Shown here one piece after another: positions 2,256-61,017 of a DNA stretch of 64,000 nt. Positions within the stretch are counted from its first letter, which is position 1, and each line of letters opens with the position of its first letter. The notes under the pieces were generated by a model that saw only the letters and a list, made by a program, of their open reading frames with translations, ran no database searches and was not told the origin of the DNA. A program made the position numbers and the translations under genes. This DNA comes from a bacterium (GTDB lineage Bacteria > Patescibacteriota > Saccharimonadia > Saccharimonadales > UBA4665), in the NCBI GenBank assembly GCA_021833065.1, contig JAKBGO010000002.1:11493-75492 (forward strand), given 5' to 3'.

Positions 2256-2846
2256 TTAGTAAAGGTTCTTGTATTGACTGTGTTCAATGTCTAAATGTCT
2301 GGTTAATTCCTTGATTAAATCATCTGCGGAATCGTTAAATGTCACCACGGAACCCTTTTTAATTGGGTGAGCCAGATTAATTAATGTATGAATTTCTTCA
2401 CTTATGCCTCCGGCACCTTGTAGGAAGCCAATCGGAGTAGATGATTCCATGGCTATCGTAAATTCATGCAGAGTTCCCAACCTACCGCCAATGCTTATTA
2501 CAGCATCGGAAGAAGTTATCAGGAGTGTGTCTCGGCCGACATAGTGTAGCCCACTATATAGAATAGTGTCATAGTACTCTACCGGTAATCGGTACTTCAT
2601 GACATGCTCTACTTTTGAAGCAGCCGGAGAAATTCCAAGACTCATCTTTCCGCCGGCTTTTTTATAAGCCTCGGCTGCATAATTTGGCAAACCGATTGTA
2701 GCACCAGTAAGCAGGCTGTGGCCGGCATTAGCAATTGCCACGCCAATCGACTCTGCAAGTCTTTTACCTTCTTCTACGCTTTCTCCTTTCGCTGCCCCTG
2801 AAACACAGATTTGATACATATTCCCCCTTTTTTTACTGGCCAACAA
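2256..2846 (-). CDS. TIGR00725/LOG-like Rossmann-fold nucleotide-binding protein
   Basis: Has ICVSGAA...GxxLLTGA...GGxGTLxEF motifs of the LOG/DprA-like (SLOG) fold. The internal ATG at 2817-2819, preceded by AAGGGGG, is a more likely start because it removes the overlap with the upstream gene. Confidence 0.7.
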   Translation of the reverse strand: MLASKKRGNMYQICVSGAAKGESVEEGKRLAESIGVAIANAGHSLLTGATIGLPNYAAEAYKKAGGKMSLGISPAASKVEHVMKYRLPVEYYDTILYSGLHYVGRDTLLITSSDAVISIGGRLGTLHEFTIAMESSTPIGFLQGAGGISEEIHTLINLAHPIKKGSVVTFNDSADDLIKELTRHLDIEHSQYKNLY

Positions 2847-4029
2847 ATACTTCTTTTAATAAATTATCAGTTCTAACTCGAGATACACCCGAAAGATATT
2901 CTACGACACTACTAATATTAAAATACTGATTGATTAATTCTTTCTTTAAAGATAGCTGGGCATTGGCTAAACTACGATAAGCAAAATCAACTCCCTCAAC
3001 AATGTCACTGACGATATCTTTGACATTAAACGAAACAGATTGATGATGATTTACATTTAGAAGATAGTTAGTATCCGACCAGAAATCCAAATTGTTGAGG
3101 TGTAGTATTTTATTATCCAGTCGACTTAGAGAAGTTTTCTTTTCTACTATATTTAAATCCTCCAGTATATCGCTAAACATCGTAAAATCACTGAACTTAT
3201 CGATGAATTTCTCTAAAAACTCATTAGGTAAAACGCTCTTATCATTTAGCATGAAGTTATAGAAAACAGAAAAATCATCACGAAACTTAACGAAATCGAG
3301 AATTCTGTCCTTAAGGACCCAGGTGTTGATTATTTCGCCAATCTCGATTAAGAATTTAATCAGACTAGCGCTGCCAGATATTGTTTTATCACTCAAATAA
3401 ATAGTGGCTGATTTAAAATCTGCAAAACTGGAATCAGCTATTCTAGTTCTATTTTCTTTTTTAAAAATTATCGGCGTATAAGACAGGTTATTTATTCCAA
3501 TATGTCTTAGGCTATTCCCAATCAATTCAGCGGTACTAGCGGACTCTTGGGACTGAGCCATCGAAAATATTAACGACATAGGTTCTCTTTTAAACATTGA
3601 GGCTTTAGTTCTGTAGCCCATAAATTTTACTGTTTTTTTCAAAGGTAGATTACTTAATTGAGTTTTCAGAAAACCAGACCTCAAGGCCAGCATACTTAGT
3701 CCCTGACAAGATTGATTCAGTCTCAATATCAATCCGTCTAATAAATTTGCTTCAGCCGATATCTTATCGGCCGCCAGATACCGAAGACGACGAGTTAGGC
3801 TGTTTTCATCTTGTTTAATCTTTTCTCGCAATGCAAAGTATAGTTCTTCGGAGGTAGTGTCGTGGGGATCAAGACCCAACATTTTAAGTTTGTCTCTTAT
3901 TAAACGTCTCATCGTCTCGGTGAAATAAATATCATTGTTGGTTTTTCCACTAATCTTATTAATCTTCAGAATGCTCTGATGAAAGTTGGGATGGTGTTGG
4001 TCTAATGCTACTTTTAAGAATTTAGTCAT
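2833..4029 (-). CDS. hypothetical protein
   Basis: 398-aa uninterrupted ORF packed tightly between neighbours on the same strand. I recognise no motif. Confidence 0.6.
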   Translation of the reverse strand: MTKFLKVALDQHHPNFHQSILKINKISGKTNNDIYFTETMRRLIRDKLKMLGLDPHDTTSEELYFALREKIKQDENSLTRRLRYLAADKISAEANLLDGLILRLNQSCQGLSMLALRSGFLKTQLSNLPLKKTVKFMGYRTKASMFKREPMSLIFSMAQSQESASTAELIGNSLRHIGINNLSYTPIIFKKENRTRIADSSFADFKSATIYLSDKTISGSASLIKFLIEIGEIINTWVLKDRILDFVKFRDDFSVFYNFMLNDKSVLPNEFLEKFIDKFSDFTMFSDILEDLNIVEKKTSLSRLDNKILHLNNLDFWSDTNYLLNVNHHQSVSFNVKDIVSDIVEGVDFAYRSLANAQLSLKKELINQYFNISSVVEYLSGVSRVRTDNLLKEVFVGQ

Positions 4030-24494: not shown

Positions 24495-25883
24495 ATGCCT
24501 CCAAATGAAGACCAAAACCAAAATCAGAACCAGGAAATAAATATTGCTGAAGTTGCAAATAGTCCTTTCGACATTAAAAGCCAATTACCTCCTGAAGCCT
24601 ATAACCCTGTTATGCCAAGCACGTTGCCTAACAAGCCTGGCCATAAGAAGATGATAATTAGTATCCTTGTTATCTTCTTGATCGTTGTGGGTGTTAGTGT
24701 GGTGTTTTACCTTAAGTTATTTCAAAAGTCTTCTAGCTTGTACTTTTATAGCAACATGTCTGGCTCGAGCTTGATTGTGGAAGATTCAGCCCAGAAAACA
24801 ATAACTAAATTTACTCCTCAAAATCAGTTAAATCTGGTCGGCGTCTTGGATCGCAACAGTCAGGCAACCCTGGTCGGAGAACAGTCTCCAAATTTATTTT
24901 TTAATAATGAATACATCGTAAATAACACTGGGTTAGTTAACAAACTCCCTTCTTCGGTTGTTTCACCTCAGTTCCTTGGTTCAAATAAAAGTATTCAAGA
25001 ACCTGCTATCCAACAATTTTTAGGCTATAGTGGTGATTTAATAGAAAACCACTGCCAGTATAATGCCGCGAATTATATCGAAGCCTGCAATATATATGAT
25101 GTTAATCTAAAGAGTGGCTCTTTTAAAACCATTGGCTCGTTTCCTGTCCCTAACCTAGGATCATCCCAGCAAAATGCCCTACCGCCATATGATTTATATA
25201 TACTTGGCGTTTCGCCTAAAAACATAGTCTACGTCATATACGTAACTTCTTTGAATAATACTGCGGCCACGGTTGACTTAGAAGAAATTAATGTGAGTGA
25301 CGACAGAGTAGTAAAGATTGTAAAGATTAATAACATTGACAGTAGCATGGTAGGCTTGGATCATGCCGATACATATGCAATTCCGTTTTCTCTGTCTAGT
25401 AATTTTGGTTGGTTTGCCTATACAAGCCAGAATGGTGAAAATGGCATCTATATTACTAATCTCACTAGTGGTAAAACTAAAAAGTTGAGTGTCCCTCAAA
25501 GTAGTAGTTCATTCCCATCCATTTCCGGAGTTCAGGATGTAGCGTTATCACCAGACGGAAGCAAGGTAGCTTTCGTTAATATAAAAGGTAACCTAGCCCC
25601 AGGCGCTGCCGATACTGAGTATATTGCCTACATTAATGTTGCGGATGGGAATGTCACTAAAATCTATACCAGTAGTGATGACGCTTACAAACTTATGGGC
25701 TGGTTAAGAAACAACACCATTGCATTTCTCAGTTATGCTGGCAAGCCGAACTTCTTTAATTATTTCAGCTTAAAGACGTCAAAAATATCTCAAATTCCAG
25801 CACCTAAAGGATACTTTCTTGTAGTCCACGACTTATCTTACGGCAGTATGAACTACCTCGCCCAAGTTCAGCGGTTATACTAA
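24495..25883 (+). CDS. membrane-anchored protein with TolB/PD40-like beta-propeller features
   Basis: N-terminal NQ-rich tail, one TM helix (MIISILVIFLIVVGVSVVFYL), and an ALSPDGSKVAFV-type PD40 motif near the C-terminus. Confidence 0.6.
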   Translation: MPPNEDQNQNQNQEINIAEVANSPFDIKSQLPPEAYNPVMPSTLPNKPGHKKMIISILVIFLIVVGVSVVFYLKLFQKSSSLYFYSNMSGSSLIVEDSAQKTITKFTPQNQLNLVGVLDRNSQATLVGEQSPNLFFNNEYIVNNTGLVNKLPSSVVSPQFLGSNKSIQEPAIQQFLGYSGDLIENHCQYNAANYIEACNIYDVNLKSGSFKTIGSFPVPNLGSSQQNALPPYDLYILGVSPKNIVYVIYVTSLNNTAATVDLEEINVSDDRVVKIVKINNIDSSMVGLDHADTYAIPFSLSSNFGWFAYTSQNGENGIYITNLTSGKTKKLSVPQSSSSFPSISGVQDVALSPDGSKVAFVNIKGNLAPGAADTEYIAYINVADGNVTKIYTSSDDAYKLMGWLRNNTIAFLSYAGKPNFFNYFSLKTSKISQIPAPKGYFLVVHDLSYGSMNYLAQVQRLY

Positions 25884-41710: not shown

Positions 41711-42547
41711 ATGAAAGGTTATCCTACCAGACAACAACTTTTGAAATTGAAAAGTTTTAAGAGCCCCAATTGTCTGAGTATTTATTCGCCGTACCTAAGT
41801 CCAAACAGTCCGACTAATCCCAATAAGATAGAGTTTGGAAATCTATTTAAAGACGTCAAAGAAAAACTTATTGAATCCGGGCTTGAAAAAAAAGAGATTA
41901 AAAAAATGTTATTGCCGGTTCAGAAAATGATTAAAAATCATGAGTTTTGGCCAACCAAAAAACAAAGTTTGGTAGCATTCGTACACCCTGACTTTTTTGT
42001 TTTTTATCATATTGACGACACCAATTTTGAACCTTCAGTTTATCTATCGAAAGGGTTCGTTCTGAAGCCACTGGAGAAAACCATGAATAAAAACAGATCA
42101 TACATATTACTATCACTCAGCCACAACAAAGTGGAAATTTTTGAAGGAGATCTATATGATATCAGGAAAGTTCATCTTAAAAACTTTTCCACCAATATGA
42201 AATCGGCTCTGAATATTGGTGAATACAACAAGCTAAGGGGCATGCACGAGATTGCTCCATCCTATATGGGGAAGGGTTCAGAGGCATTTCATGGACACTA
42301 CAATGTCAAAGAAACTGATAAAATTATGTTACTTGAGTTCTTTAGACTGATTGATAAAAAACTTCATGGCATTTTAGTTAAGAAGAACAAACCGTTGATT
42401 CTCGCAGGGGTCAACCACTTAATTCCAATCTATCGAAAAGTAAACACCTATCCGAAAATTTTTTCCAAATACATCAGGGGTAATCTTAACTACTCTGACC
42501 TAAAAACCATTCACCAAAGAGCGATAAAGATTGTTCAGTCTACTTAA
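41711..42547 (+). CDS. hypothetical protein resembling bacterial aeRF1-like (baeRF) families
   Basis: The N-terminal pattern L..LKSFKSPNCLSIYSPY..PNSPTNPNKIEFGNLFKDVKEKL...EFWPTKKQSLVAFV matches the '...VSIYLPT....QN.IRLKNL...FW..Q..GLA.F' signature I recall for baeRF proteins. SD AAGGAGGGG. Confidence 0.45.
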   Translation: MKGYPTRQQLLKLKSFKSPNCLSIYSPYLSPNSPTNPNKIEFGNLFKDVKEKLIESGLEKKEIKKMLLPVQKMIKNHEFWPTKKQSLVAFVHPDFFVFYHIDDTNFEPSVYLSKGFVLKPLEKTMNKNRSYILLSLSHNKVEIFEGDLYDIRKVHLKNFSTNMKSALNIGEYNKLRGMHEIAPSYMGKGSEAFHGHYNVKETDKIMLLEFFRLIDKKLHGILVKKNKPLILAGVNHLIPIYRKVNTYPKIFSKYIRGNLNYSDLKTIHQRAIKIVQST

Positions 42548-44654
42548 ACTTTTTTTGGTTGGGCCACCAGACTTTTCTATCTAGGTCGTAAGCTATCGAA
42601 GTAACGAGAAGTGATCTGATAATTAGAGTATCCAATAAAACTCCAAAGGCTACTATAAAGGCAATCTCAGCCAAAAATAGTATTGGAATTACACCAAGAG
42701 CAGCGAATGTGGCAGCCAGAACGACTCCTGCAGAAGTTATAACACTACCGGTCATACTAAGTCCCTTAAGTACTCCAAATCTGGTAGAATGCTTGATTGA
42801 TTCTTCTCTGATTCTCGTCATTAAGAAGATATTGTAATCAACTCCTAAGGCTACTAGGAAAATAAAACCGAAAAGCGGTACCGATGGATCTGAACCAGGA
42901 AAATGGAATACATGATTAAAAAACAAAGCTGATATGGCTATGGTACTGGCGTAACTAAGCACCACCGATAAAATTAAGACTATTGGTGCCAGAATGGAAC
43001 GAAGTAACAGTATCAAAATTATAAAAATGACCACCAAAACAATCGGGATTATGACATGCAAGTCTCGACTGGCAGCAGTATTAACATCAAGCTGAATAGC
43101 TGTATTTCCACCAACCAAAACAGCTGGATCGTACTGCTTTAGTGAAATTCTAATATCCTTAATAAAATTCTGAGCTGACGATGACTGTGCCTGATAATTA
43201 ATGGTTGTTTGTATCAAGACTTTATTATCGTAGACAATTGGTACTTCTTTTTTAGTCAATGGATTGAAACTGGAAACAATTATCGATGAAGAGACAGCTG
43301 AATTTCGACTTAAATCGGATATTATTTTACTTGCGGATTTTTCCGAAGCAATAATTTCCACCGGATTACCCGATCCGGCCGGGAAGAAAGTTCCGAGTAA
43401 ATTTTGACCCTGAACAGCTGGAGGGTTACCCATAATTGTTTCAGTTTGGGTTACTCCCGAAGCCTTAAATGTCGGTAGCGCAAAAGCAATTAAAATTAAT
43501 AGTGAAACAGATATGACAATCCAAATTTTTCTATAATGCTTCTCAACAAAAGCAGCGACCTTACTCCAGAATTTTGAATAGACATTATAGCTGCTGGCAT
43601 CTTCTTTTTTGACCAGACTAGGCTCAAGCTTAACTTTGAGGGGCCAAAAAGCTTTTCGACCGAAAAGCAACAATAGAGACGGGAAAAAAGTCATCGCTAC
43701 CAAAAATGAAACAATAATACCTATCGCGGCAATCGGACCAAGGCTTCGATTGGAATTAAGCGAAGAAAACAAAAGACTAAACAATGCAGTGACAACTGTG
43801 GCGGCAGCAGCCAATATTGGTTCCCAGGAAGCTAACAAGGTTTGCTTGACAGCTTCTATCTTTGAATCAAACTCATGTAATTTTTCTTTAAAACGGGACA
43901 ATATAAGAATGGAATAATCAGTTGTTGCCCCAATCACCAATATTGATAAGATTCCTTGGCTTTCACCGTTCAAATCGACTACATTGTGGGATGCCAGTGC
44001 AAAAACCACCATAATTGATCCGGACAAAGCGAACACAGAGCTAAGTAGCACCAGAAAAGGTAGAAGTATCGATCTATAAACCAGTAGCAAGATTACGAGC
44101 ACCGAAATTATTGCCACATACGTCAAAATACCGTTTATACCGTTAAATGCCGTTGAGAACGCATTGACAATTCCGGCCGGTCCGGTGACATAGGATTTCA
44201 GATTTGATGGTTTATTGGTGTTGATTATTTTTTTAACAGCGTTTATTGAAGGAGTGTTATCGGTGACAGCTTTAATCGGTACAAATATCTCAGCAGCTAA
44301 CCCATCCCGAGAAAATATCGGACCAATTACGCCCGAAGTCTTACTTAAGGCAAGGTCTGGTACCTGGCTGGTTAACTGAGGTATTAATGATTTCAAATAG
44401 GAAATATTTGTAGTCGTCTTAATAGGCTGATTTGAAGTAAATAGCAATATTGCCGGTAAAGTATTTGACTGACTGAAATGACTTATCTGGTCCTCGACCA
44501 AAGTCGATTGAGCCGTTTTAGGTAAGAAAGATGACTCGGCATTATTTGAAAGTCCGTTAATTTTACCAAATGTTGGACCCCCCAAGCCGGCGATAACCAA
44601 CCAAAAACCTATAATTAGGATTGCCAACAGATAGAACTTTTTTCTATTTTTCAT
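42540..44654 (-). CDS. MMPL-family (RND superfamily) transporter
   Basis: 704 aa with two 6-TM bundles and two extracytoplasmic loops; the duplicated pattern RFKE.../RIREE... is typical of MMPL. Confidence 0.9.
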   Translation of the reverse strand: MKNRKKFYLLAILIIGFWLVIAGLGGPTFGKINGLSNNAESSFLPKTAQSTLVEDQISHFSQSNTLPAILLFTSNQPIKTTTNISYLKSLIPQLTSQVPDLALSKTSGVIGPIFSRDGLAAEIFVPIKAVTDNTPSINAVKKIINTNKPSNLKSYVTGPAGIVNAFSTAFNGINGILTYVAIISVLVILLLVYRSILLPFLVLLSSVFALSGSIMVVFALASHNVVDLNGESQGILSILVIGATTDYSILILSRFKEKLHEFDSKIEAVKQTLLASWEPILAAAATVVTALFSLLFSSLNSNRSLGPIAAIGIIVSFLVAMTFFPSLLLLFGRKAFWPLKVKLEPSLVKKEDASSYNVYSKFWSKVAAFVEKHYRKIWIVISVSLLILIAFALPTFKASGVTQTETIMGNPPAVQGQNLLGTFFPAGSGNPVEIIASEKSASKIISDLSRNSAVSSSIIVSSFNPLTKKEVPIVYDNKVLIQTTINYQAQSSSAQNFIKDIRISLKQYDPAVLVGGNTAIQLDVNTAASRDLHVIIPIVLVVIFIILILLLRSILAPIVLILSVVLSYASTIAISALFFNHVFHFPGSDPSVPLFGFIFLVALGVDYNIFLMTRIREESIKHSTRFGVLKGLSMTGSVITSAGVVLAATFAALGVIPILFLAEIAFIVAFGVLLDTLIIRSLLVTSIAYDLDRKVWWPNQKKFK

Positions 44655-50964: not shown

Positions 50965-51594
50965 ATGGAAGCAATAAATAACCAATCTTTAGATATATAT
51001 CAAGGCGCTAAATTACCAACAAGGATTAGTGCTTCCGGGGAACTGGAAATTGATTGGCCTAAGTTTCTCCCCCTCCCGGCATCTCAACCTAGAACTGAGG
51101 CATTTCTTGGATTTAGAATCAAAGAACTGCGTGCTTCCGGCGATGATTCCGACAAAAAAACTGCCAGAATTATCCGCGAAGGAGCCGGCGTTGTTTTGAA
51201 GCAATCCGGTGTTTCTCTAAAGTTAATGAGAGATGTCAATGAAATGGTGTCTTTTCTGGAGGAAAGCAACCCTAACGCTTACAAAGTAGACAATCTGTTA
51301 AACCAAGGCCATTCAATTTACGAAATTCAGCAGTTTTGGAGAATTGCCGATGAACTACGGATTGGCCCCCGTAGGATTGACGGCCTAATCAGGCTAATCG
51401 GTAGACTCGGCCTAGATCCATTCGATTGTGACGATGATCTGGATATGATTGATGGTGCAATCGATATTATAGCCGAGAGAAATCAGGAAGTCGGTTCAAT
51501 CAGCATCAGTACCATCAGACGTGGCATTGCCGTCGCAAGGCTCGATAACCACATTCAAAATGGCGGACTGTTGCAAGATATTTTAGATAGTTAA
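50965..51594 (+). CDS. hypothetical protein
   Basis: 209-aa ORF, first gene of a same-strand run up to 55035. Confidence 0.5.
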   Translation: MEAINNQSLDIYQGAKLPTRISASGELEIDWPKFLPLPASQPRTEAFLGFRIKELRASGDDSDKKTARIIREGAGVVLKQSGVSLKLMRDVNEMVSFLEESNPNAYKVDNLLNQGHSIYEIQQFWRIADELRIGPRRIDGLIRLIGRLGLDPFDCDDDLDMIDGAIDIIAERNQEVGSISISTIRRGIAVARLDNHIQNGGLLQDILDS

Positions 51595-51609
51595 GAGGAT
51601 TTAATTTTA

Positions 51610-52734
51610 ATGGAAAGAGCAAAAAGAAACGAAACCAGAGCTGCTCTTAGAAGACTTGATTCGCTAATACCCTCTAATCCTCTGGAATTACTGATGGTCG
51701 GCGAAGATTTAGCTAGAACCCTGGGACCTGAGGAGCTAAAAACTTTAGTTAAATCTATTGGAAATATTTTACTGAGAGAGATTCACCCCGATACATCGAC
51801 AAATCAAAGACTGATTGGCAAGTTTACCGTAGAGCAAGTACTTTCAGCCGTTGATGAATATAATCAAAATCCCGATCGCATTCGAACAGAATATTTAAGC
51901 AGTTTCAATAAAAAAAATCGGAAAGACTCACAGGTAAGCCTAAAAAATGCCGAAATTATTCCGATTAATCCGATTGAGTCATCAAACGAAATATTCGAAT
52001 CCTTATACTCCGAAGAGTCTGTTATAAAAATAAAGGATGCCACAATTTTACTAACCACTTTTTCGCTGAATAAACAAGAAAAAAATCAAAACCCATATCA
52101 TTCTTTGATTATAAAAAACAATAAAGCCGTAATTAAGCCGCTTAGATACTACGATGATGATTTTTCCGATTCCGAACGGTTGGAAATTATAAATGATATT
52201 TCCAAAAATTCTGCGATAGAGGATTCCACGGCAGTTTATGCAACAAAAGACATTTTAACTATCATTCCCGGTTTATCTCAGGAGGTATCTGAAATTCCAA
52301 ACATTTTTCCTGAACTTCTGAAAGATGGTTGGTGGTATAAAATAATCGGAACCAAGCGATATCAAGAAGAAAACAGATCAATACTTAGCTTTAAACCGCT
52401 TTCAACCAACCAAACGGTGAAGTTACTGGGCTCAATCCCGCTCAATATTGCAACTACTGTGGCTTTTTCAATATCGCAAAAAGCCGAAGCCAACATACAA
52501 TCTCAGCAAATTCTGGAATCCAATACAAATAAGAGGCAGGCAAACTTAAAACGGAAGAATTTTACTATCATTCCCGAAGATGTATGGAGAGACTTGCTTC
52601 AATCTACCTCAATAGATCACAATTTAATATTTAAACCCTTCCTTTTACCGAGCCATGTTTTAGTTGGTGAAACAAAGGATAAATCAAAACTCCTGCTCGG
52701 AGAAACAAGTTTTATTAGCGCCGAATATTTTTAA
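51610..52734 (+). CDS. hypothetical protein with an N-terminal J-domain-like segment
   Basis: Residues ~25-95 (LELLMVGEDL...PEELKTLVKSIGNILLREIHPDTSTNQRLIGKFTVEQVLSAVDEYNQNP) fit the helix II - HPD - helix III pattern of DnaJ J-domains. The C-terminal ~280 aa are unrecognised. Confidence 0.5.
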   Translation: MERAKRNETRAALRRLDSLIPSNPLELLMVGEDLARTLGPEELKTLVKSIGNILLREIHPDTSTNQRLIGKFTVEQVLSAVDEYNQNPDRIRTEYLSSFNKKNRKDSQVSLKNAEIIPINPIESSNEIFESLYSEESVIKIKDATILLTTFSLNKQEKNQNPYHSLIIKNNKAVIKPLRYYDDDFSDSERLEIINDISKNSAIEDSTAVYATKDILTIIPGLSQEVSEIPNIFPELLKDGWWYKIIGTKRYQEENRSILSFKPLSTNQTVKLLGSIPLNIATTVAFSISQKAEANIQSQQILESNTNKRQANLKRKNFTIIPEDVWRDLLQSTSIDHNLIFKPFLLPSHVLVGETKDKSKLLLGETSFISAEYF

Positions 52735-52759
52735 GAAAATTTACATAATTATCTGATTA

Positions 52760-53293
52760 TTGTATAATATATTTATTATGGCAGCCGGTAGATTTGAAAA
52801 ATTTAATCCGGAAATACCTCATACATCTGAGAGTAATTTTACTGATGTTTACTTCCAACCTATCTTGAACTTAACACAAAGGGCTCTAAAAAAAGTCGTG
52901 CCTGAAGAAATTGGATGGGTTGATAGTTTTCGTGATGTAATAACTTCCCGGAAGAAATTTTATGAGTTAAATAATGATAAATTTATGTTGACTGATTACA
53001 GAAAATCCGGCGATTCACCGGAGAGCAATCCACTGCAAATTCGACTTGTTGTCTGGGAACAAAACATAGACCAAGAAGGTAATTTAATAAGTTCCAACAT
53101 CGATATCAAATACTTCGAGACAATATCAAAAAAACTTCGGATTGTCCGATTAGACAATATATCCGACGAGATTATTAACGACAGTCGAAAACTCCATACT
53201 TTTTATAGTCTAGAAAAAGATTTCAATATGATTGAAGCCAGTCCGGAAGAATATTACGGTTTTTGTTTGGCACTGATGATTGGTGCCAGATAA
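52760..53293 (+). CDS. hypothetical protein
   Basis: 177-aa ORF; the ATG at 52778 (MAAGRFEKF) is an alternative start. Confidence 0.5.
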   Translation: MYNIFIMAAGRFEKFNPEIPHTSESNFTDVYFQPILNLTQRALKKVVPEEIGWVDSFRDVITSRKKFYELNNDKFMLTDYRKSGDSPESNPLQIRLVVWEQNIDQEGNLISSNIDIKYFETISKKLRIVRLDNISDEIINDSRKLHTFYSLEKDFNMIEASPEEYYGFCLALMIGAR

Positions 53294-53341: not shown

Positions 53342-54235
53342 ATGGATGCAATTAACACTAAATCACTGACAAAATTTTATCCCGGTCAATCAAAACCGGC
53401 AGTCAATAATTTATCTATCAGTATTAAACAAGGTGAAATCTACGGATTCTTGGGAGCAAACGGCGCCGGTAAAACAACCACAATAAGACTTCTCATGGAC
53501 TTCATTAAGCCAACAGATGGAACTATTGAGATATTCGGATTAGATCTAAAAACAAACTCCATTAGAATTAAGGAACAAATTGGATATTTAGCCGGAGAAG
53601 CGAAACTATATTCTGGCGTCAGCGGTAAACAAATACTTGATTTTCTATCATCAATAAGGCAAGTAGACAATTCGTACAGAAAGAAACTGGAGAAAGACTT
53701 CCAAGCGGACTTAAATCAACCGATTGAAGAATTATCAAAGGGCAATAAGCAGAAAATAGCCATCATCCAAGCCTTGATGAATCAACCGAAAGCACTGATT
53801 TTAGATGAGCCGACTTCTGGTCTTGACCCCCTAATGCAGGAAGTGTTCTATGATACAATCGAAGATTTGTCTAAAAATGGTACGGCAATTTTGATGAGTA
53901 GTCACAATTTAAGTGAAGCTCAGAAAATTTGCCATCGTATAGGCATTATCAAAAATGGCTCACTCGTGCACCAACAAGATGTAGGAGAAGATAGCCTATT
54001 ATCGGCCAATCTTTATAGGCTTAAATTGAAATTTGCCAAAGACATCAAGGCTCTGAAAAAATTCAATCAACTTACACTGGTCAAAACTCTAAATGATACT
54101 GAGATTATAGTAAAACCAAAAAAATCCTTAAATGATTTCCTCGGCGAAATATCTAAATTGCCACTAATAGAGTTTAATTCTCAGAAAATTGATCTAGAAG
54201 ATGAATTCCTAACATTTTACGGGGAAAATAAATGA
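53342..54235 (+). CDS. ABC transporter ATP-binding protein (ABC-2 type)
   Basis: GANGAGKTT, LSKGNKQKIAIIQAL, LILDEPTSGLD. Confidence 0.92.
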   Translation: MDAINTKSLTKFYPGQSKPAVNNLSISIKQGEIYGFLGANGAGKTTTIRLLMDFIKPTDGTIEIFGLDLKTNSIRIKEQIGYLAGEAKLYSGVSGKQILDFLSSIRQVDNSYRKKLEKDFQADLNQPIEELSKGNKQKIAIIQALMNQPKALILDEPTSGLDPLMQEVFYDTIEDLSKNGTAILMSSHNLSEAQKICHRIGIIKNGSLVHQQDVGEDSLLSANLYRLKLKFAKDIKALKKFNQLTLVKTLNDTEIIVKPKKSLNDFLGEISKLPLIEFNSQKIDLEDEFLTFYGENK

Positions 54236-55035
54236 AAGATGTTATAGTCTGGGAAATATCAAGAAGAAAGAAATATATGATTTGGTGGGCTATTGGAATC
54301 AGTCTAACCATTATTTTGATACTTTCGATTTATCCTTCAATTCGAGATCAATTCAAAACATTCGACAATTTAATAAAACAACTTCCATCAGCATTCATAA
54401 ATCTTCAAACCGGTGGCGCCAATGAAAGTATTGCCAGTCCGGTGGGTTGGCTTAATTCTCAACTATACTTCGTAACTCTTCCAATACTTTTTCTTATCAT
54501 GTCAATCGGTCTTGGCGGTTCAATTTTAGCTATGGACGAAAAAGAACATACTTTAGAACTGATTTTAGCAAGACCCATATCACGTGCCAAACTAATTGCA
54601 TCTAAACTGATTTCATACTTTTTAATCATAGCTGTTCCTTGGCTAATATCATCAATCGTTACCGGAATAACTTCAAGTATAATTCATCTACCAATAAGCC
54701 AATTTAATCTTTTTATAGCTGATATTTGGCTGCTAATTTTCATATTAGCTTATGGCCTAATCGCCTTTGCCGCTACAGCTGTATCAACAAAAATTAAGAG
54801 AATCGGCACCATTGCGGCTACATTAATAGCATTCCTGGGTTATCTACTCACGTCGTTGGCTAATCTAAATCATTTTGTAGCTGATTTCGCTAAATTATTA
54901 CCTTGGTATTACTTCACCCCAAGTAAATTATTATTAGGAAATCTTAATACAACTTTGAATATATATTTATTAACCCTGTCCCTTTTTATGATAATTATTT
55001 CTTTTGTAGGCTTTAATAAAAGGGATCTGGCGTAA
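54232..55035 (+). CDS. ABC-2 family transporter permease
   Basis: 267 aa, 6 TM helices, 4-nt overlap with the ATPase gene. Confidence 0.8.
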   Translation: MKDVIVWEISRRKKYMIWWAIGISLTIILILSIYPSIRDQFKTFDNLIKQLPSAFINLQTGGANESIASPVGWLNSQLYFVTLPILFLIMSIGLGGSILAMDEKEHTLELILARPISRAKLIASKLISYFLIIAVPWLISSIVTGITSSIIHLPISQFNLFIADIWLLIFILAYGLIAFAATAVSTKIKRIGTIAATLIAFLGYLLTSLANLNHFVADFAKLLPWYYFTPSKLLLGNLNTTLNIYLLTLSLFMIIISFVGFNKRDLA

Positions 55036-55038
55036 ACC

Positions 55039-56613
55039 CTAAGAGCCGCTCTTATTTGTAGTAGCTAGGATTTGATTTATTTGAGCTTGTGTCAGAGGCG
55101 CCCACGGTGAACTGTCGGGATTTGAGGAAGCAGCTGCGGGACTATCGCCCTGATTCCACCATTTAGCCTGATAAGGAACCCCGTTGAAGAGGACTCTGTC
55201 ATTGGTGTTATAAACGCTTGATCCGGACCAATCTGGGTATGTGCCGGCTGGAAGTGTTGGCTGCGAGATTGGTTTTTCACCGGGAAGCACTGGACCGATA
55301 AGTTGCCATGGGGTCTGCCAGGTTTGAAGCACAGGATTATCTGGTACATCCCCCTGAGTCCACCATTTAGCCTGATAGACATTGTGGTGCCAAACAACTT
55401 TAGTACCTTCCAAATAAGCATTAGAAGGTGACCAAATCTGGTAAGGGCTGGTTGCTGGGTTGTCTGGCTGAGAATAGAAGTTACTTGAGACATCAGAAGC
55501 TGTAATTAACCCTGAACTTCTGGTAAAGCTCCCCGAAAAAGATTTTTTCAGTAGGCTCGAAAACTCAAACGGTGATTGAGTGACCCCACTACATGAATTT
55601 GATACTATTCTCAAATTAAGGTAATTACCGCCGCAGGCCACATCCCTATTTTCAGACCAAATTGATAGGCGTCCAATGCCTTTAGACACGGCAAATTGGT
55701 TGAAGAGCTTAGCATCATTCAAACTGAAAACTTCATTGTAATTGTCGTTTTGTCCAATCATTGGAGTGGCACCAATTTTTAGCCAAGTCGAAAAATTACT
55801 TAAATATATCTTTTGCTTTTTATATAAAATCTGAACCTGCCTTTCAGTCTGAACGACAGCCTTTTCTGAAGCACTCAGCATGGTCTGACCATGTACTAAG
55901 CTATTGTTGCCATAGTCCATCACCAAAATATTGATACCGGATAAATCGACGCCGGCACCTAGCATATCATTAATCTGGTTAATAGCACTTTGATTTAAGC
56001 CGTCCGGGGTTACTGGAAGAGTCAACCAGACAGCCAAATTTTTATGAACTAACCGTCTTTCTCGCTGGATTGATGCAATTACCTGAGCTCTTCTTACGCT
56101 GCTTGTATTATCGTTCAGCGAAGGACCTTCGATATCAAAATCAACTGTATTTAATTTGTATCTGTTAATTACATCCTGGTAGGCCGACATCAGTTGGCTA
56201 TAATTCTTACACCCTAAGGCTAATTCATTGTTCTTAAGTCCGCCGAATGAAACTGCGACCGATCCGCCTTGTTGCTGAAGTCTTGCAATTCTTCTATCTA
56301 AATCTAAGGACCCTGCTGCCTGGGAAAGACTATAATAACCACCCCAACTCGGTGAACAGACATCGTTAGCCGATGAAACTACAAATCCTAAAATAACGTC
56401 CTTAGGAGAACCGTTAGATAATTGTTCAAAGTGAAAAATTGGAGTAGTAGTTACGTCTACGTAAGGCGCAAACCAAGGTTTCTTGGAATCATAGATGCGA
56501 GAATTTATCCAACTGTTGACAGAAAATACTGCAATTAGACAAATGGACAGCAAGACTATAACAGACAAAAATAGCCTGGGTAAAGATATTTTTCTTTTTG
56601 CATTAGAGGACAT
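55039..56613 (-). CDS. membrane-anchored GH18 (chitinase-like) protein with two C-terminal CBM5/12 chitin-binding modules
   Basis: N-terminal TM helix; GH18 catalytic motif VDFDIEG (DxDxE); two repeats of Y-x-AKWW(T/N)QGD. Confidence 0.85.
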   Translation of the reverse strand: MSSNAKRKISLPRLFLSVIVLLSICLIAVFSVNSWINSRIYDSKKPWFAPYVDVTTTPIFHFEQLSNGSPKDVILGFVVSSANDVCSPSWGGYYSLSQAAGSLDLDRRIARLQQQGGSVAVSFGGLKNNELALGCKNYSQLMSAYQDVINRYKLNTVDFDIEGPSLNDNTSSVRRAQVIASIQRERRLVHKNLAVWLTLPVTPDGLNQSAINQINDMLGAGVDLSGINILVMDYGNNSLVHGQTMLSASEKAVVQTERQVQILYKKQKIYLSNFSTWLKIGATPMIGQNDNYNEVFSLNDAKLFNQFAVSKGIGRLSIWSENRDVACGGNYLNLRIVSNSCSGVTQSPFEFSSLLKKSFSGSFTRSSGLITASDVSSNFYSQPDNPATSPYQIWSPSNAYLEGTKVVWHHNVYQAKWWTQGDVPDNPVLQTWQTPWQLIGPVLPGEKPISQPTLPAGTYPDWSGSSVYNTNDRVLFNGVPYQAKWWNQGDSPAAASSNPDSSPWAPLTQAQINQILATTNKSGS

Positions 56614-58949
56614 TATTTTAAGTCCTCACTCGACAAAATAGTGTTACTGTAATCCATTTCGATAATGTGGTGAGGTGATGTATTTTCAATGTCACCGTGA
56701 TATAAGACTGACCGCCAGTCGAATTCCTGTTCCTTTTCTTCGTTGGTTTTTTCAACTTTTTTAACGTCCACGTACAGCCAATTGATGAACCCCTTCCAAA
56801 CGTCGATAAAAATATTACTTATTCCGATATATGCAATTACCGCCCAGCCGGCCAGTAATGCATTGAAGCCAGCGAAAAATGCATTAATCCAGTTATGATA
56901 GAAATAATCTCTTACAAGAATCGCAAGTGAAAAACCGATAATAATTAAAGGTGTTAATATGTAAATACTAGGCGCGATAGTTCGATTTTTTACCTTTGGT
57001 GTTCTTGCAAAAGGAATCTTTTTAGCCGTTATTGATTGTTGAAGTGATTTTATAACTCCAGCTAGATTTACTGGTAATAATATAAGGTTAAAACCATAAA
57101 TCCTTAGAACGTCTGTCCTCTTGTAGCCACAGTATTTCAGATCGCTCGCCATAGCTAAGAAATATGGCAAAGCAGCCAGAATTACAAATGGACTCAAAAG
57201 CCGACCATCATATGGGTACGCTAAAAGAAATATCAGTCCAAAAGAAGCCCAAGTTATCGAAGCCATATAGTTAAGCCTCAATAAAAACCCTGTGTTTAGA
57301 ATATTTTCACGCTGCTTCTTTCTTTCCCTGGCATGTTTTAAGAGCTTAGGCAGGATAAGCAAACCTCCATTAGCCCACCTGCGCCTCTGGACAATCAATG
57401 ATCCAAAATCCGGCGGTGTAGCACTATAGCTAAGTCTCTCCGGATAATTATATAAAGACCACCCATTAATGCATAAATCTATGCTTGATTCAGTATCTTC
57501 TATGACGGTTCTGTCTTGGATATATCTCTTTATTTCGAATCCGCCAATCCACTCTTTTTCAACAATATCTTCCAAAGCTTTCTTTCTGATTACGGCGTTG
57601 GCGCCAACCCAAAAAGTAGCATCAAAATAGGTCATTCCCTGATGTAGGATATGTTGAATATCTGTAGTTGCAGCAGCCAGTCTTTCAATCCTGGTAGCCG
57701 CTCCTCTAAATGATGAATAAGGTGTCTGCGTTACAGCGATTTTCTCATTTCCCGGCTGTTCTAAGAAGTACACCAGCCTCAAACAATAGTCTCGAAGTAG
57801 TATCGAATCAGCGTCCAGAGTCAAAATAAACTCGCTATCTGGTATCACCAAATCTTTTCGAGACGGTTTTTTCACTGGTAACAATATTAAGCCATCAGGT
57901 GTTAGACGCTCTTCATACCGGCCACCCATTAGGCCTATATATGAATTTAAATTCATCGCCTTATTGGATTCATGGGATAGTGATGCGTATTTTTTTCGCT
58001 CAAAAACTTCAATATCAAAATTAAAAATTGACCTTAGTCGATTGTAGAGCTGCGCAACTCTAACTACTGGGAGAGAAATTCCTTCAACTAGAGAGTCTTC
58101 AAGTGCTCGGCTTACAAGTACCAATTCACGGCTTAAATCTTTTAAAACGTGATTAGCGAAAAATAAATCAACATGGTCTTTAACAGTTTCTTGGTTAGCA
58201 ATTTGATCTAACCACCCATATGCAAATTTATATTCATCAATTAATTTTCTTAAATCCTTGGTTGATACTTTAGTTTTTAAACCGTATTTTTTTCTAAATT
58301 CCGATTCAGCTTTATTGAATCTTACTGCGAGGGGTTTAAAGAGATTGGTTATCTGCGAGGGGATGTTTCTGGTAGCATCAAGCTTGTCTGCGACGGAAGA
58401 ATCGGTTGGGTTGGGATTATCGTCTATCAGAAGGACTACTCTAGTATTAGGGAATTCCTGGATGGCAGCCGACATCAAAGTTTTTCTGATTACATCCGGC
58501 TCTTCGTTATATGAGGGCACTAGAACAGTTATTGAGGGGCTATTATTCGAAAAAAAATGTTGATCTAATTCTGCTCTCGGGACTCTGACGTGCTTAGCGA
58601 ATCTTTGATATGCGCCAGCTCTTGATACTAAGTACATCAAAGCCGAGAATGTTAGAAATGTAACGACAATTAAATAACCAAAGGATTGAAGCATGAAGCT
58701 AAATGTCTGTGGTCCGTTAAAAAACTGTCTAATAACAGTAGAGACTAGGTAAGAAATCCAGAAAAGGACAGTAATAACTATGGCCAGCCTAGAAAAAGTT
58801 ATCTTTTTAGTAGTAGGCTTTGCATGCACAATCGATAGCGGTTCCGTTTTTTTCTCAGCGCCCCACTGTCTTTTAAAATTTAACAGCTTTAGATTTTTAT
58901 TGTCAGACTTCAAAATAATCCCTTTTATAATTAAAATATACTCTAACAC
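56613..58949 (-). CDS. processive family-2 glycosyltransferase (cellulose/chitin-synthase-like), polytopic membrane protein
   Basis: VLVPSYNEE, LLIDD, LTLDADS, VIEDTESS and QRRRWANGG (QxxRW) motifs flanked by TM helices. The stop overlaps the GH18 start (TAATG). Confidence 0.85.
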   Translation of the reverse strand: MLEYILIIKGIILKSDNKNLKLLNFKRQWGAEKKTEPLSIVHAKPTTKKITFSRLAIVITVLFWISYLVSTVIRQFFNGPQTFSFMLQSFGYLIVVTFLTFSALMYLVSRAGAYQRFAKHVRVPRAELDQHFFSNNSPSITVLVPSYNEEPDVIRKTLMSAAIQEFPNTRVVLLIDDNPNPTDSSVADKLDATRNIPSQITNLFKPLAVRFNKAESEFRKKYGLKTKVSTKDLRKLIDEYKFAYGWLDQIANQETVKDHVDLFFANHVLKDLSRELVLVSRALEDSLVEGISLPVVRVAQLYNRLRSIFNFDIEVFERKKYASLSHESNKAMNLNSYIGLMGGRYEERLTPDGLILLPVKKPSRKDLVIPDSEFILTLDADSILLRDYCLRLVYFLEQPGNEKIAVTQTPYSSFRGAATRIERLAAATTDIQHILHQGMTYFDATFWVGANAVIRKKALEDIVEKEWIGGFEIKRYIQDRTVIEDTESSIDLCINGWSLYNYPERLSYSATPPDFGSLIVQRRRWANGGLLILPKLLKHARERKKQRENILNTGFLLRLNYMASITWASFGLIFLLAYPYDGRLLSPFVILAALPYFLAMASDLKYCGYKRTDVLRIYGFNLILLPVNLAGVIKSLQQSITAKKIPFARTPKVKNRTIAPSIYILTPLIIIGFSLAILVRDYFYHNWINAFFAGFNALLAGWAVIAYIGISNIFIDVWKGFINWLYVDVKKVEKTNEEKEQEFDWRSVLYHGDIENTSPHHIIEMDYSNTILSSEDLK

Positions 58950-60261: not shown

Positions 60262-61017
60262 TTATTCAGCCGGTTTTCCTAAATCATCAAAACCATCAGG
60301 CATTTTTGCTGAATACTGCATTGAACGTAATGCCGATAGCCCCTCCTTGACGATTGGTCTTGCTCCGTAATGGTCCATCGACTGCTGACAGACATCTGTC
60401 CAAAAGGAATTTCGTCTGATTTGACGATCAATAGCCAGATTAGCTAACCTTCTTGCCTTAGAAATTCTTGTGTGATGCATCGTCTGGTTGATTTTTTCTA
60501 AAACTAAATCATCTTCAGACGAAAAATAGTCAATTCCATTATAAATATGTATTTCATCATTTTCTGGAAATTGTTCTCGTTCTAATAAATTGTCTAGGTC
60601 GATTAGTTTGGCGGCGATTGGCCAGTAAGGTCTCGTTGCCTCGACTGAAGTCATCCTTCTACCGCCATCCATTGATGCGAGCTTAAGCGACATTTCCTGA
60701 TAGTATTCAATGCTTTTGTAACTGGTTATTAGGTATGATACATACTCCCTTGCGATACTTCTGACAGCTCTTAGTGGCTCCTCAACTCCGTGCTTAATTT
60801 GGTGGCGTAAAACATTATTTAAATGCTTGGCGGCTTTTCCGGGAATAGAATTATATCCTAATGGAATAGAATTATATCCTAATAATGTGAAAGTCTCACC
60901 AAGCTCTCGCTTTGATTCGGGAGTAAAACCGTGCTCATAACTTATAAATTGTAGACGGATGATTGGATTATCAAACATATTACTTGCTACTGGTTTATCT
61001 GGCATCTCCGGATTCAT
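60262..61017 (-). CDS. hypothetical protein (contains an in-frame 7-aa tandem duplication)
   Basis: 251-aa ORF; LGYNSIP-LGYNSIP is encoded by a perfect 21-bp tandem repeat. Confidence 0.55.
   Translation of the reverse strand: MNPEMPDKPVASNMFDNPIIRLQFISYEHGFTPESKRELGETFTLLGYNSIPLGYNSIPGKAAKHLNNVLRHQIKHGVEEPLRAVRSIAREYVSYLITSYKSIEYYQEMSLKLASMDGGRRMTSVEATRPYWPIAAKLIDLDNLLEREQFPENDEIHIYNGIDYFSSEDDLVLEKINQTMHHTRISKARRLANLAIDRQIRRNSFWTDVCQQSMDHYGARPIVKEGLSALRSMQYSAKMPDGFDDLGKPAE
60842..60883. repeat. perfect 21-bp tandem duplication inside a CDS
   Basis: GGAATAGAATTATATCCTAAT occurs twice (60842-60862 and 60863-60883). Confidence 0.9.

Follow-up and report, generated by a model that had tools for sequence, protein, structure and literature searches.

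We analyzed a 64-kb stretch of contig JAKBGO010000002.1 (64,000 nucleotides, here called the window, to which all coordinates refer), which belongs to a Saccharimonadales bacterium and comes from a mine-drainage metagenome. The window also encodes the housekeeping protein TypA, whose named relatives (75-76% identity) are all from Saccharimonadales or Patescibacteria. The minus strand of this window carries, at positions 55039-58949, a module of two genes, of which one encodes a family 2 glycosyltransferase (GT2) and the other a membrane-anchored family 18 glycoside hydrolase (GH18) with two CBM5/12 carbohydrate-binding modules. At the junction, which reads ...TTA AAA TAATG TCC..., the stop codon of the GT2 gene (TAA, 56615-56613) overlaps the start codon of the GH18 gene (ATG, 56613-56611); both the coordinates of the open reading frames (ORFs) and the junction sequence thus agree with the overlap described in the initial annotation of this DNA. 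The listed GTG start of the GT2 gene is probably 12 codons too early (58911-58949), since the TTG at 58913-58911 is preceded by AAAGGG, which resembles a ribosome-binding site, and gives a protein of 766 amino acids, close to the length of the orthologues (~760-767 amino acids). The features of the module are as follows.

56613-58949, minus strand: GT2 synthase ORF, 778 amino acids as listed from GTG, probably 766 amino acids from the TTG at 58913 (ORF list, Pfam Glyco_trans_2_3)
58593-58811, minus strand: N-terminal pair of transmembrane helices, residues 47-119 (AlphaFold helices 47-77 and 83-119; hydropathy peaks 55-73 and 83-101; N-terminus rich in K/R)
58410-58544, minus strand: GT-A domain, part 1, with PSYNEE and DD (D176, D177) (translation, invariance in orthologues, alignment to BcsA and NodC)
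58005-58409, minus strand: four-helix insertion of 135 amino acids, residues 181-315, with the motif D-H-x-D-x-F-F (AlphaFold, hhalign alignment to BcsA)
57360-58004, minus strand: GT-A domain, part 2, with NKAMNLN, DAD (379-381), FWVGAN, IED (483-485) and QRRRW (521-525)
56784-57296, minus strand: C-terminal membrane module with two transmembrane helices, interface helices, the gating loop FARTPK (647-652; 56994-57011) and two further transmembrane helices (AlphaFold, hydropathy)
56616-56783, minus strand: predicted cytosolic C-terminal tail with DWRxVLYHGD, modeled with low confidence
56611-56615, minus strand: TAATG stop/start overlap of the two genes
55039-56613, minus strand: membrane-anchored GH18 protein with two CBM5/12 modules, 524 amino acids
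56497-56583, minus strand: N-terminal signal anchor, helix 11-39 with hydrophobic core 14-32, preceded by four K/R residues; the remainder of the protein is predicted to lie outside
55555-56478, minus strand: compact GH18 (beta/alpha)8 catalytic domain, with DFDIE at residues 158-162 (56128-56142)
55291-55437, minus strand: CBM5/12 module 1, AKWWTQGD (Pfam CBM_5_12; PDB match 4txg, a chitinase)
55093-55251, minus strand: CBM5/12 module 2, AKWWNQGD (Pfam CBM_5_12, residues 462-504; PDB matches 2d49, 6z40 and 4hmc)

Motifs and predicted topology of the GT2 synthase

The GT2 protein is matched by the Pfam family Glyco_trans_2_3 (1e-35). Translation located its DD motif at residues 176-177 (58419-58424), DAD at 379-381 (57807-57815), ED at 484-485 (57495-57500), and QRRRW at 521-525 (57375-57389), and these four motifs were invariant across 37 orthologues. 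The AlphaFold model arranges the protein in the order of two transmembrane helices, the GT-A domain, an interface helix right after QRRRW, two transmembrane helices, interface helices, a loop of low confidence, two transmembrane helices, and the tail. Together with hydropathy and the distribution of positive charges, these helices predict a topology with both termini inside and six membrane crossings, which matches the "minimal synthase core" described for BcsA and CesA (PMC8892547). The motif FARTPK, invariant in the orthologues, is found in the low-confidence loop between helices 625-641 and 659-683. Its counterpart in E. coli BcsA is FNVTAK, and the FxVTxK gating loop of BcsA binds UDP (PMC8892547); among 121 representatives of the wider GT2 family, the loop is kept as F-x-R-T-P-K. 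In a Foldseek search with the model, the top structures were BcsA, poplar CesA8, and the hyaluronan synthase (HAS) of a Chlorella virus (E = 3e-7 to 4e-5, probability 1.0). The Pfam scan revealed no PilZ domain in the GT2 protein, whose C-terminal tail comprises 56 residues modeled with low confidence.

Between DD and DxD, the protein has ~155 residues more than E. coli BcsA. They correspond to the four-helix insertion (residues 181-315, pLDDT >90) plus a hairpin of ~30 amino acids (341-370), so that the insertion of about 170 amino acids between DD and DAD that had been noted from the sequence is real and its size approximately right. The hhalign alignment to BcsA places it between DD and NKAMNLN, the latter being the counterpart of KAGN in BcsA. 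No Pfam family matched the insertion. Its D-H-x-D-x-F-F motif (residues 258-265, 58155-58178), of which H259 is present in 105 of the 121 family representatives, hints at a metal- or ligand-binding site.

Two further motifs, an N-terminal RQWGAE..PLxIVH (residues 27-52, 58794-58871) and a C-terminal DWRxVLYHGD (residues 744-753, 56691-56720), were invariant in the orthologues despite being modeled with low confidence. Both are confined to the subfamily paired with GH18 and are absent from the wider GT2 family; we speculate that they could be sites of partner contact or regulation.

The partner is a chitinase-type GH18 protein

In the partner protein, the anchor is followed by the GH18 barrel, a Ser/Thr-rich linker, and the two CBM5/12 modules, all predicted to lie outside the membrane. 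The Pfam GH18 model (PF00704), which is recorded for most orthologues, gave no score on this protein. However, phmmer aligned the protein with Chitinase 1 of Streptomyces venezuelae (9BUF, E = 7e-54) and with a chitinase of Pyrococcus furiosus (2DSK, E = 3e-19), and its AlphaFold model superposed on these two structures with Foldseek TM-scores of 0.89 and 0.84, respectively. The 9BUF match and the superposition make the GH18 identity secure despite the silent Pfam model. An endo-beta-N-acetylglucosaminidase of the EndoH type was considered and rejected, because EndoH gave TM-scores of 0.25-0.44, far below those of the chitinases. The barrel lacks the chitinase insertion domain, and barrels of this kind are associated with endo-type cleavage in an open cleft. 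The structure 9BUF belongs to GH18 "Clade I", for a member of which (F2R3N3) endo- and exo-chitinase activity has been measured; by analogy, the GH18 protein presumably cleaves beta-1,4 linkages between N-acetylglucosamine (GlcNAc) residues.

The catalytic motif, VDFDIEG, occupies residues 157-163, and D158, D160, and E162 were retained in all 73 true orthologues, a conservation that suggests selection on the hydrolase to stay active. Pfam CBM_5_12 matched two stretches of the C-terminal region (51.4 bits; cut-off, 26.2). Chitinases or carbohydrate-binding proteins account for several of the closest PDB matches of this region by sequence, among them those of the second module. At the level of single features, the initial annotation is borne out by translation and by the orthologues, in that it had described a polytopic GT2 with the full set of processive motifs (D, DxD, ED, QRRRW) next to a membrane-anchored GH18 protein with an intact DxDxE and two CBM5/12 repeats.

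The GT2-GH18 pair is conserved across phyla

A scan of one genome per species yielded 129 GT2 relatives, of which the best 80 loci (53-68% identity) were examined. An orthologue of the GH18 catalytic domain and CBM region adjoined the GT2 gene in 77 of these 80 loci, which belong to at least four phyla. Two of the three unpaired loci are contigs that end inside the GT2 gene. The third, in Alicyclobacillus sp. ALC3 (L079, 5959-9538), has decayed: its GT2 has lost the C-terminus and is cut to 603 amino acids, the barrel of the GH18 protein is gone, and 121 amino acids remain of the CBM region. A gene for a CE4 polysaccharide deacetylase lies directly beside this decayed module, on the other strand. 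In a word-index search of a database clustered at 90% identity, more than 4900 GT2 homologues were found at E <= 1e-5, and the 120 best were all at least 64% identical.

Within the candidate phyla radiation (CPR), carriers of the module were Saccharibacteria and six other lineages, among them Dojkabacteria, Woesebacteria, WWE3, Moraniibacteriota, and Parcubacteria. The other carriers were Ktedonobacteria, Chloroflexia, one Alicyclobacillus, and many Actinomycetota, namely, Arthrobacter, Paenarthrobacter, Pseudarthrobacter, Curtobacterium, Herbiconiux, Mycetocola, Cryobacterium, Salinibacterium, Aeromicrobium, Nocardioides, and Humibacillus; the labels of a few metagenome-assembled genomes (MAGs) are doubtful. 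Three of these MAGs stand out: in two labeled Bdellovibrionales (L016 and L023) the GT2 clusters with that of Moraniibacteriota/Parcubacteria, and in one labeled Gammaproteobacteria (L013) with that of Saccharibacteria, at 69-79% identity. These contigs could be mis-binned or mislabeled, or could represent further transfers into double-membrane bacteria.

Gene order was compared over 78 loci (the 77 intact pairs and the CBM-only remnant in L079). The two genes were co-directional and tightly packed in 45 loci, where they commonly overlap (-1 or -4 nt) or lie a short distance apart, and divergent in the remaining 33, all of them in Actinomycetota and mostly in Micrococcaceae. A third order, with GH18 first and a 4-nt overlap, was seen in a relative of 44% identity. 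Clustering of all flanking ORFs of the 80 loci revealed no third shared gene family, and the module thus consists of two genes. A wider operon was rejected, because the other large flanking clusters were shadow ORFs in high-GC genomes. Two natural fusions (P0022 and P0101, ~1290 amino acids) combine GT2, a linker, the anchor helix, GH18, and two CBMs in one polypeptide, and the pairwise identities of the GT2 and GH18 proteins correlated with r = 0.84 over 3081 pairs. The adjacency, the fusions, and this co-divergence sustain the earlier proposal of a pair, and we conclude from these genomic comparisons that the pairing is not due to chance and represents a functional unit.

The module also appears to have moved between phyla. 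The ktedonobacterial GT2 proteins (L002-L005, L012, and L014) shared 84% identity within their group and 66% with the saccharibacterial ones (L001, L006, L008-L010, and L068), which among themselves had a mean identity of 63%; for the GH18 protein, the corresponding values were 62% between the two groups and 58% among Saccharibacteria. The ktedonobacterial copies are thus as close to the saccharibacterial ones as these are to each other, or closer, which argues for transfer of the module between phyla.

The initial annotation had considered relevance to attachment in an epibiotic organism with a small genome. The module is no peculiarity of epibionts, since free-living Arthrobacter, Paenarthrobacter, Microbacteriaceae, and Ktedonobacteria also carry it, and attachment is thus only one of several possible roles. 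In RNA-labeled sequencing runs of a Paenarthrobacter relative, locus L036 was covered over its full length at a flat depth of ~500-700 (longest contig, 88 kb); this coverage may reflect DNA and is uninformative on transcription.

Partners of the wider GT2 family and the proposed product

An exhaustive search of 1.8 billion cluster representatives resulted in 531 clusters (50% identity) of the GT2 family at E <= 1e-30, reaching down to ~35% identity. Distant members (35-45% identity) share the insertion and the gating loop. Their partners were surveyed in a sample of 18 long members, inspected for fusions, and 9 unfused members, inspected for neighboring genes. The C-terminal fusions were to CE4 (4 members), EAL (4 members; P0244, P0251, P0253, and P0254), LytR-CpsA-Psr (LCP; 2 members, P0303 and P0311), CBM5/12 (1 member), and the amidase-like DMFA2_C (1 member, P0310). 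The CE4 domain of P0274 scored best against the PgaB and IcaB de-N-acetylase models. Beside the unfused members, we found a separate CE4 gene in three of nine cases and a GH18-CBM gene in one of nine. None of the fusions or neighborhoods sampled contained a cellulase of family GH5, GH6, GH8, or GH9. The EAL fusions suggest control by cyclic di-GMP in the four distant members that carry them, whereas no receptor domain was detected by the Pfam scan in the GT2 subfamily described here; the LCP fusions suggest attachment of the polymer to the cell wall.

With these data at hand, we lean toward the view that single-membrane bacteria use the module to make a chitin-like beta-1,4-GlcNAc polymer in a synthase-dependent manner. 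The sugar is suggested by the obligate, co-diverging, and catalytically intact GH18 partner, since GH18 catalysis is substrate-assisted and needs the 2-acetamido group of the substrate itself. It is further suggested by the match of the CBM region to chitinases or carbohydrate-binding proteins, by the CE4 partners in the wider family, and by the lack of cellulases in the sample. A beta-1,4 linkage is suggested by the combination of a chitinase-type GH18 with CBM5/12 modules. The putative GlcNAc-based product foreseen by the initial annotation gains independent support from the CE4 fusions and neighbors of distant family members. We infer the sugar, the linkage, physical contact within the pair, and a role for the cell, be it a surface layer, aggregation, or attachment.

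The same partners lend themselves to another explanation, which we regard as unlikely, namely, that there is no polymer layer. Immediate cleavage by GH18 would then give short chito-oligosaccharides that serve as signals, primers, or cross-linkers, or GH18 would link the chain to the wall by transglycosylation. Tight coupling, anchoring, and even fusion put the cutter at the pore exit, the LCP-ligase fusions point toward the wall, and NodC offers a precedent for a GT2 that forms oligomers. However, two CBM5/12 modules fit an insoluble polymer better, and a channel of six transmembrane helices with a gating loop is that of long-chain synthases.

Placement of the synthase and alternative products

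The GT2 protein failed the cut-offs of all four NCBIfam synthase models inspected, with 86.7 bits on CelA (TIGR03030; cut-off, 699.1), 45.4 bits on BcsA (NF008558; 992), 55.5 bits on PgaC_IcaA (TIGR03937; 422.3), and 26.5 bits on NodC (TIGR04242; 550), the last matching the N-terminal region only. The Sinorhizobium meliloti NodC control reached 750.8 bits on the NodC model. On Pfam Chitin_synth_2, the GT2 was matched over no more than residues 120-175, with 19.1 bits and thus below the cut-off of 27, whereas 88.7 bits were reached by the NodC control across its catalytic region. In hhalign comparisons of the GT2 profile, E. coli BcsA (70.9) and PgaC (69.9) were not separable, and NodC aligned only at the N-terminal SYNEE/DD segment. 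The catalytic motif is IEDTE, compared with TEDAHT in BcsA. The motifs EDR and (S/T)WGTR are common to NodC, HAS, and chitin synthases, and QRRRW is a spelling typical of fungal chitin synthases.

On this sequence evidence, the GT2 represents a family of its own in the part of GT2 that resembles BcsA and PgaC, and the term chitin synthase, as commonly used, does not apply to it. The initial interpretation of the synthase is therefore to be amended: its coupling to GH18 stands, while the enzyme is of the BcsA type (FxxTxK loop, IEDTE) and not of the chitin synthase, NodC, or HAS type. The GT2 does not cluster firmly with either the cellulose or the poly-N-acetylglucosamine (PNAG) synthases, as seen from the two nearly equal hhalign scores and the missed equivalog cut-offs, and its GH18 neighbor is conserved.

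Several observations weigh against a chitin-like product. By NCBIfam scores, the sequence proximity of the GT2 is greatest to cellulose synthases; its PDB sequence matches, and those of the orthologue profile, were BcsA only; and its gating loop is of the cellulose type. It has IEDTE and lacks the EDR motif present in the NodC control (GEDR). A eukaryote-type chitin synthase, Phytophthora PsChs1 (7wjm), was marginal in the Foldseek search (E = 0.08), and the GT2 model itself is of moderate confidence (pLDDT 70; predicted TM-score, 0.69). On the side of the partners, CBM5 modules are also known from cellulases and are able to bind cellulose, and the targets of CE4 enzymes include O-acetyl groups and peptidoglycan as well. 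In GH18, 24 of the 73 orthologues have phenylalanine in place of the tyrosine in the M-D-Y motif (Y234 here, 55912-55914). This replacement might reduce activity, and judging from it the enzyme may be tuned down in some lineages. Finally, the proposal is built on gene structure, motifs, folds, predicted topology, conservation of the pair, fusions, and co-divergence, from which the product is inferred.

Some of these observations would be accommodated by a GT2 that makes cellulose or another beta-glucan, an alternative to which we assign a low probability. The GH18-CBM protein would then be a BcsB-like guide or co-polymerase, with a hydrolase site that acts elsewhere or on nothing. Agreeing with it are the best sequence and structure matches (BcsA and CesA), the BcsA-type gating loop, the resemblance of IEDTE to TEDAHT, the affinity of CBM5 for cellulose, and a weak match to the Pfam cellulose-binding model CBM_5_12_2. 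Nevertheless, a non-enzymatic guide would hardly be expected to keep the GH18 triad invariant, as it is in 73 of 73 orthologues, and GH18 enzymes cannot hydrolyze glucans because of their substrate-assisted catalysis. In addition, the wider family occurs with CE4 and in the sample examined never with GH5, GH6, GH8, or GH9, and PgaC is as close as BcsA by hhalign.

The closeness to PgaC bears in turn on a further alternative, equally improbable in our view, in which the GT2 makes beta-1,6-linked PNAG, as do PgaC, IcaA, and MatB, or a GlcNAc polymer that is linked in some other way and partly deacetylated, and GH18 processes this product or has another role in the envelope. Besides the hhalign score, it draws on the CE4 domain fused to family members, with its best scores against the PgaB and IcaB models, and on the precedent of Streptomyces MatB, a bifunctional GT2-CE4 PNAG synthase (PMC5972031). 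On the other hand, the closest solved relatives of the GH18 domain are chitinases, which cleave beta-1,4 linkages. The enzymes that degrade PNAG belong instead to GH20 (dispersin B) or GH153, and CBM5/12 modules bind crystalline beta-1,4 polymers. Moreover, E. coli PgaC is without the FxxTxK gating loop, and the PgaC_IcaA model gave 55.5 bits against a cut-off of 422.

Proposed mechanism and implications

If the product is a chitin-like polymer, the module would act as a self-contained, horizontally mobile, synthase-dependent exopolysaccharide unit. On the cytosolic side, where the GT domain, the gating loop, and both termini are predicted to lie, the GT2 would build a beta-1,4 chain from a UDP-sugar, which is most likely UDP-GlcNAc. 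As a processive channel-former on the minimal BcsA/CesA core, it would push this chain through its own six-helix pore. The GH18 partner, with its K/R-rich N-terminus in the cytosol, would cross the membrane once and expose the barrel, the linker, and the CBMs outside. Such a topology requires the anchor helix, which is consistent with its retention in the natural fusions. Outside, the two CBM5/12 modules would capture the emerging chain and the open-cleft GH18 domain would cut it, by which the polymer may be released, sized, or untangled, or chito-oligosaccharides may be made. In this manner, the GH18 partner would merge the roles of BcsB (an anchored, carbohydrate-binding guide) and BcsZ/CcsZ (a cognate hydrolase).

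A more far-reaching version of this mechanism is possible, although we hold it only tentatively. According to it, a large and so far unrecognized BcsA-like family unrelated to eukaryotic chitin synthases and to NodC makes true chitin, or chitosan in the branches linked to CE4, on single-membrane bacteria (CPR epibionts, Actinomycetota, and Ktedonobacteria); the insertion would be an oligomerization or regulatory module like the plant-conserved region (PCR) of plant CesA, and the GH18-CBM protein an obligatory co-subunit. Were this true, chitin in the environment would also come directly from bacteria, and the surface of Saccharibacteria would bear a structure based on chitin, with a possible use on their actinobacterial hosts.

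Chitin is generally regarded as a eukaryotic polymer that bacteria degrade. To our knowledge, the bacterial exceptions are the NodC oligomers and a dozen horizontally acquired chitin synthase genes of the eukaryote type. We describe here a native bacterial synthase family that is tied unusually strongly to a chitinase and to chitin-binding modules in at least four phyla. If the product is chitin-like, culturable bacteria such as Arthrobacter, Paenarthrobacter, and Curtobacterium would provide models for a pair found in uncultured CPR bacteria, and the counts of GH18/CBM5 genes and the chitin stains in soil and metagenome surveys would read differently. If it is instead a glucan, the invariant active site of GH18 would be a puzzle of its own.

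Other features of the window

Upstream of the module lies a gene for a LigB-type dioxygenase and downstream one for an ABC transporter, both unrelated to it. The convergent ABC-2 permease gene (54232-55035, plus strand) stops 3 bp from the stop codon of the GH18 gene, and neither of the two genes thus has an intergenic terminator (55035-55039). Promoter-like and terminator-like matches in the window were at chance level, and the Rfam scan of the window revealed a single tRNA and nothing else.

An MMPL-family transporter (42540-44654, minus strand; Pfam, 7e-107) is present in this small-genome bacterium, unlinked to the module. Sizeable uncharacterized ORFs lie within 50965-53293 and at 2833-4029, 24495-25883, and 60262-61017. 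Pfam scans of the ORFs at 2833-4029, 24495-25883, 51610-52734, and 60262-61017 gave no match, and neither was a Pfam match recorded in the precomputed gene table for the ORF at 52760-53293.

Comparison with known systems

The BcsA/BcsB/BcsZ and clostridial CcsA/CcsZ systems share with the module the GT-A motifs D, DxD, (T)ED, and QxxRW, the six-helix core, and a loop of the FxVTxK type. BcsB, like the GH18 partner, has a single membrane anchor and carbohydrate-binding domains, and BcsZ and CcsZ are cognate hydrolases encoded beside the synthase, the clostridial enzyme being tethered to the membrane. The BcsB anchor is needed for BcsA activity, and CcsZ is a membrane-tethered GH5 enzyme (PMC8892547). 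In contrast to BcsA, the GT2 has no PilZ domain, carries the 135-amino-acid helical insertion, and remains far below the CelA cut-off (86.7 versus 699 bits). The partner hydrolase is a GH18, with GlcNAc substrates, and not a GH8 or GH5, and guide and hydrolase are united on one polypeptide.

Like plant CesA with its PCR, the GT2 lacks PilZ and has a helical insertion on the side of the GT domain that points away from the membrane. We take the two insertions to occupy the same loop, although no sequence similarity between them was detected; the PCR serves in trimerization, and the insertion of the GT2 might conceivably do likewise. Bacterial homologues with a helical insertion and without PilZ have been mentioned (PMC8892547), and the family described here may be the one meant.

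Compared with PgaC and IcaA, the catalytic core is equally distant by profile comparison, and relatives of the GT2 carry CE4 fusions as MatB does; these PNAG systems are also those of monoderm or biofilm-forming bacteria. Differences are the missing gating-loop motif in PgaC, the score far under the model cut-off, and a partner that is a chitinase-type GH18 with CBM5/12 instead of a deacetylase or a GH153. NodC and the eukaryote-type chitin synthases resemble the module in the proposed sugar and linkage and in a weak N-terminal match to Chitin_synth_2 and NodC. They differ in that the GT2 lacks EDR, its catalytic region is unmatched by Chitin_synth_2, and PsChs1 is marginal by structure. The "bacterial chitin synthases" derived from horizontal gene transfer and reported in 2016 are of the eukaryote type, occur in a dozen Proteobacteria in operons with an epimerase and DUF1501, and are of unknown activity (PMC5122149); they belong to another family and to operons different from the GT2-GH18 module. 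The Clade I chitinases (9BUF) and P. furiosus ChiA, finally, have the same compact barrel, DxDxE motif, and lack of an insertion domain, whereas the GH18 protein has an anchor that appears uncleaved, two C-terminal CBM5/12 modules, and an obligate synthase partner in the genome.

Full-text literature searches retrieved no description of a BcsA-like GT2 paired with a GH18/CBM5-12 protein, and the one paper on bacterial chitin synthases among their results (PMC5122149) deals with another family. Modules of a synthase plus a hydrolase are already known, and the tie of a BcsA-like synthase to a GH18/CBM5-12 protein is new to the literature found. If its product is chitin-like, the module would represent a fifth type of synthase-dependent exopolysaccharide system, beside those for cellulose, PNAG, alginate, and Pel.

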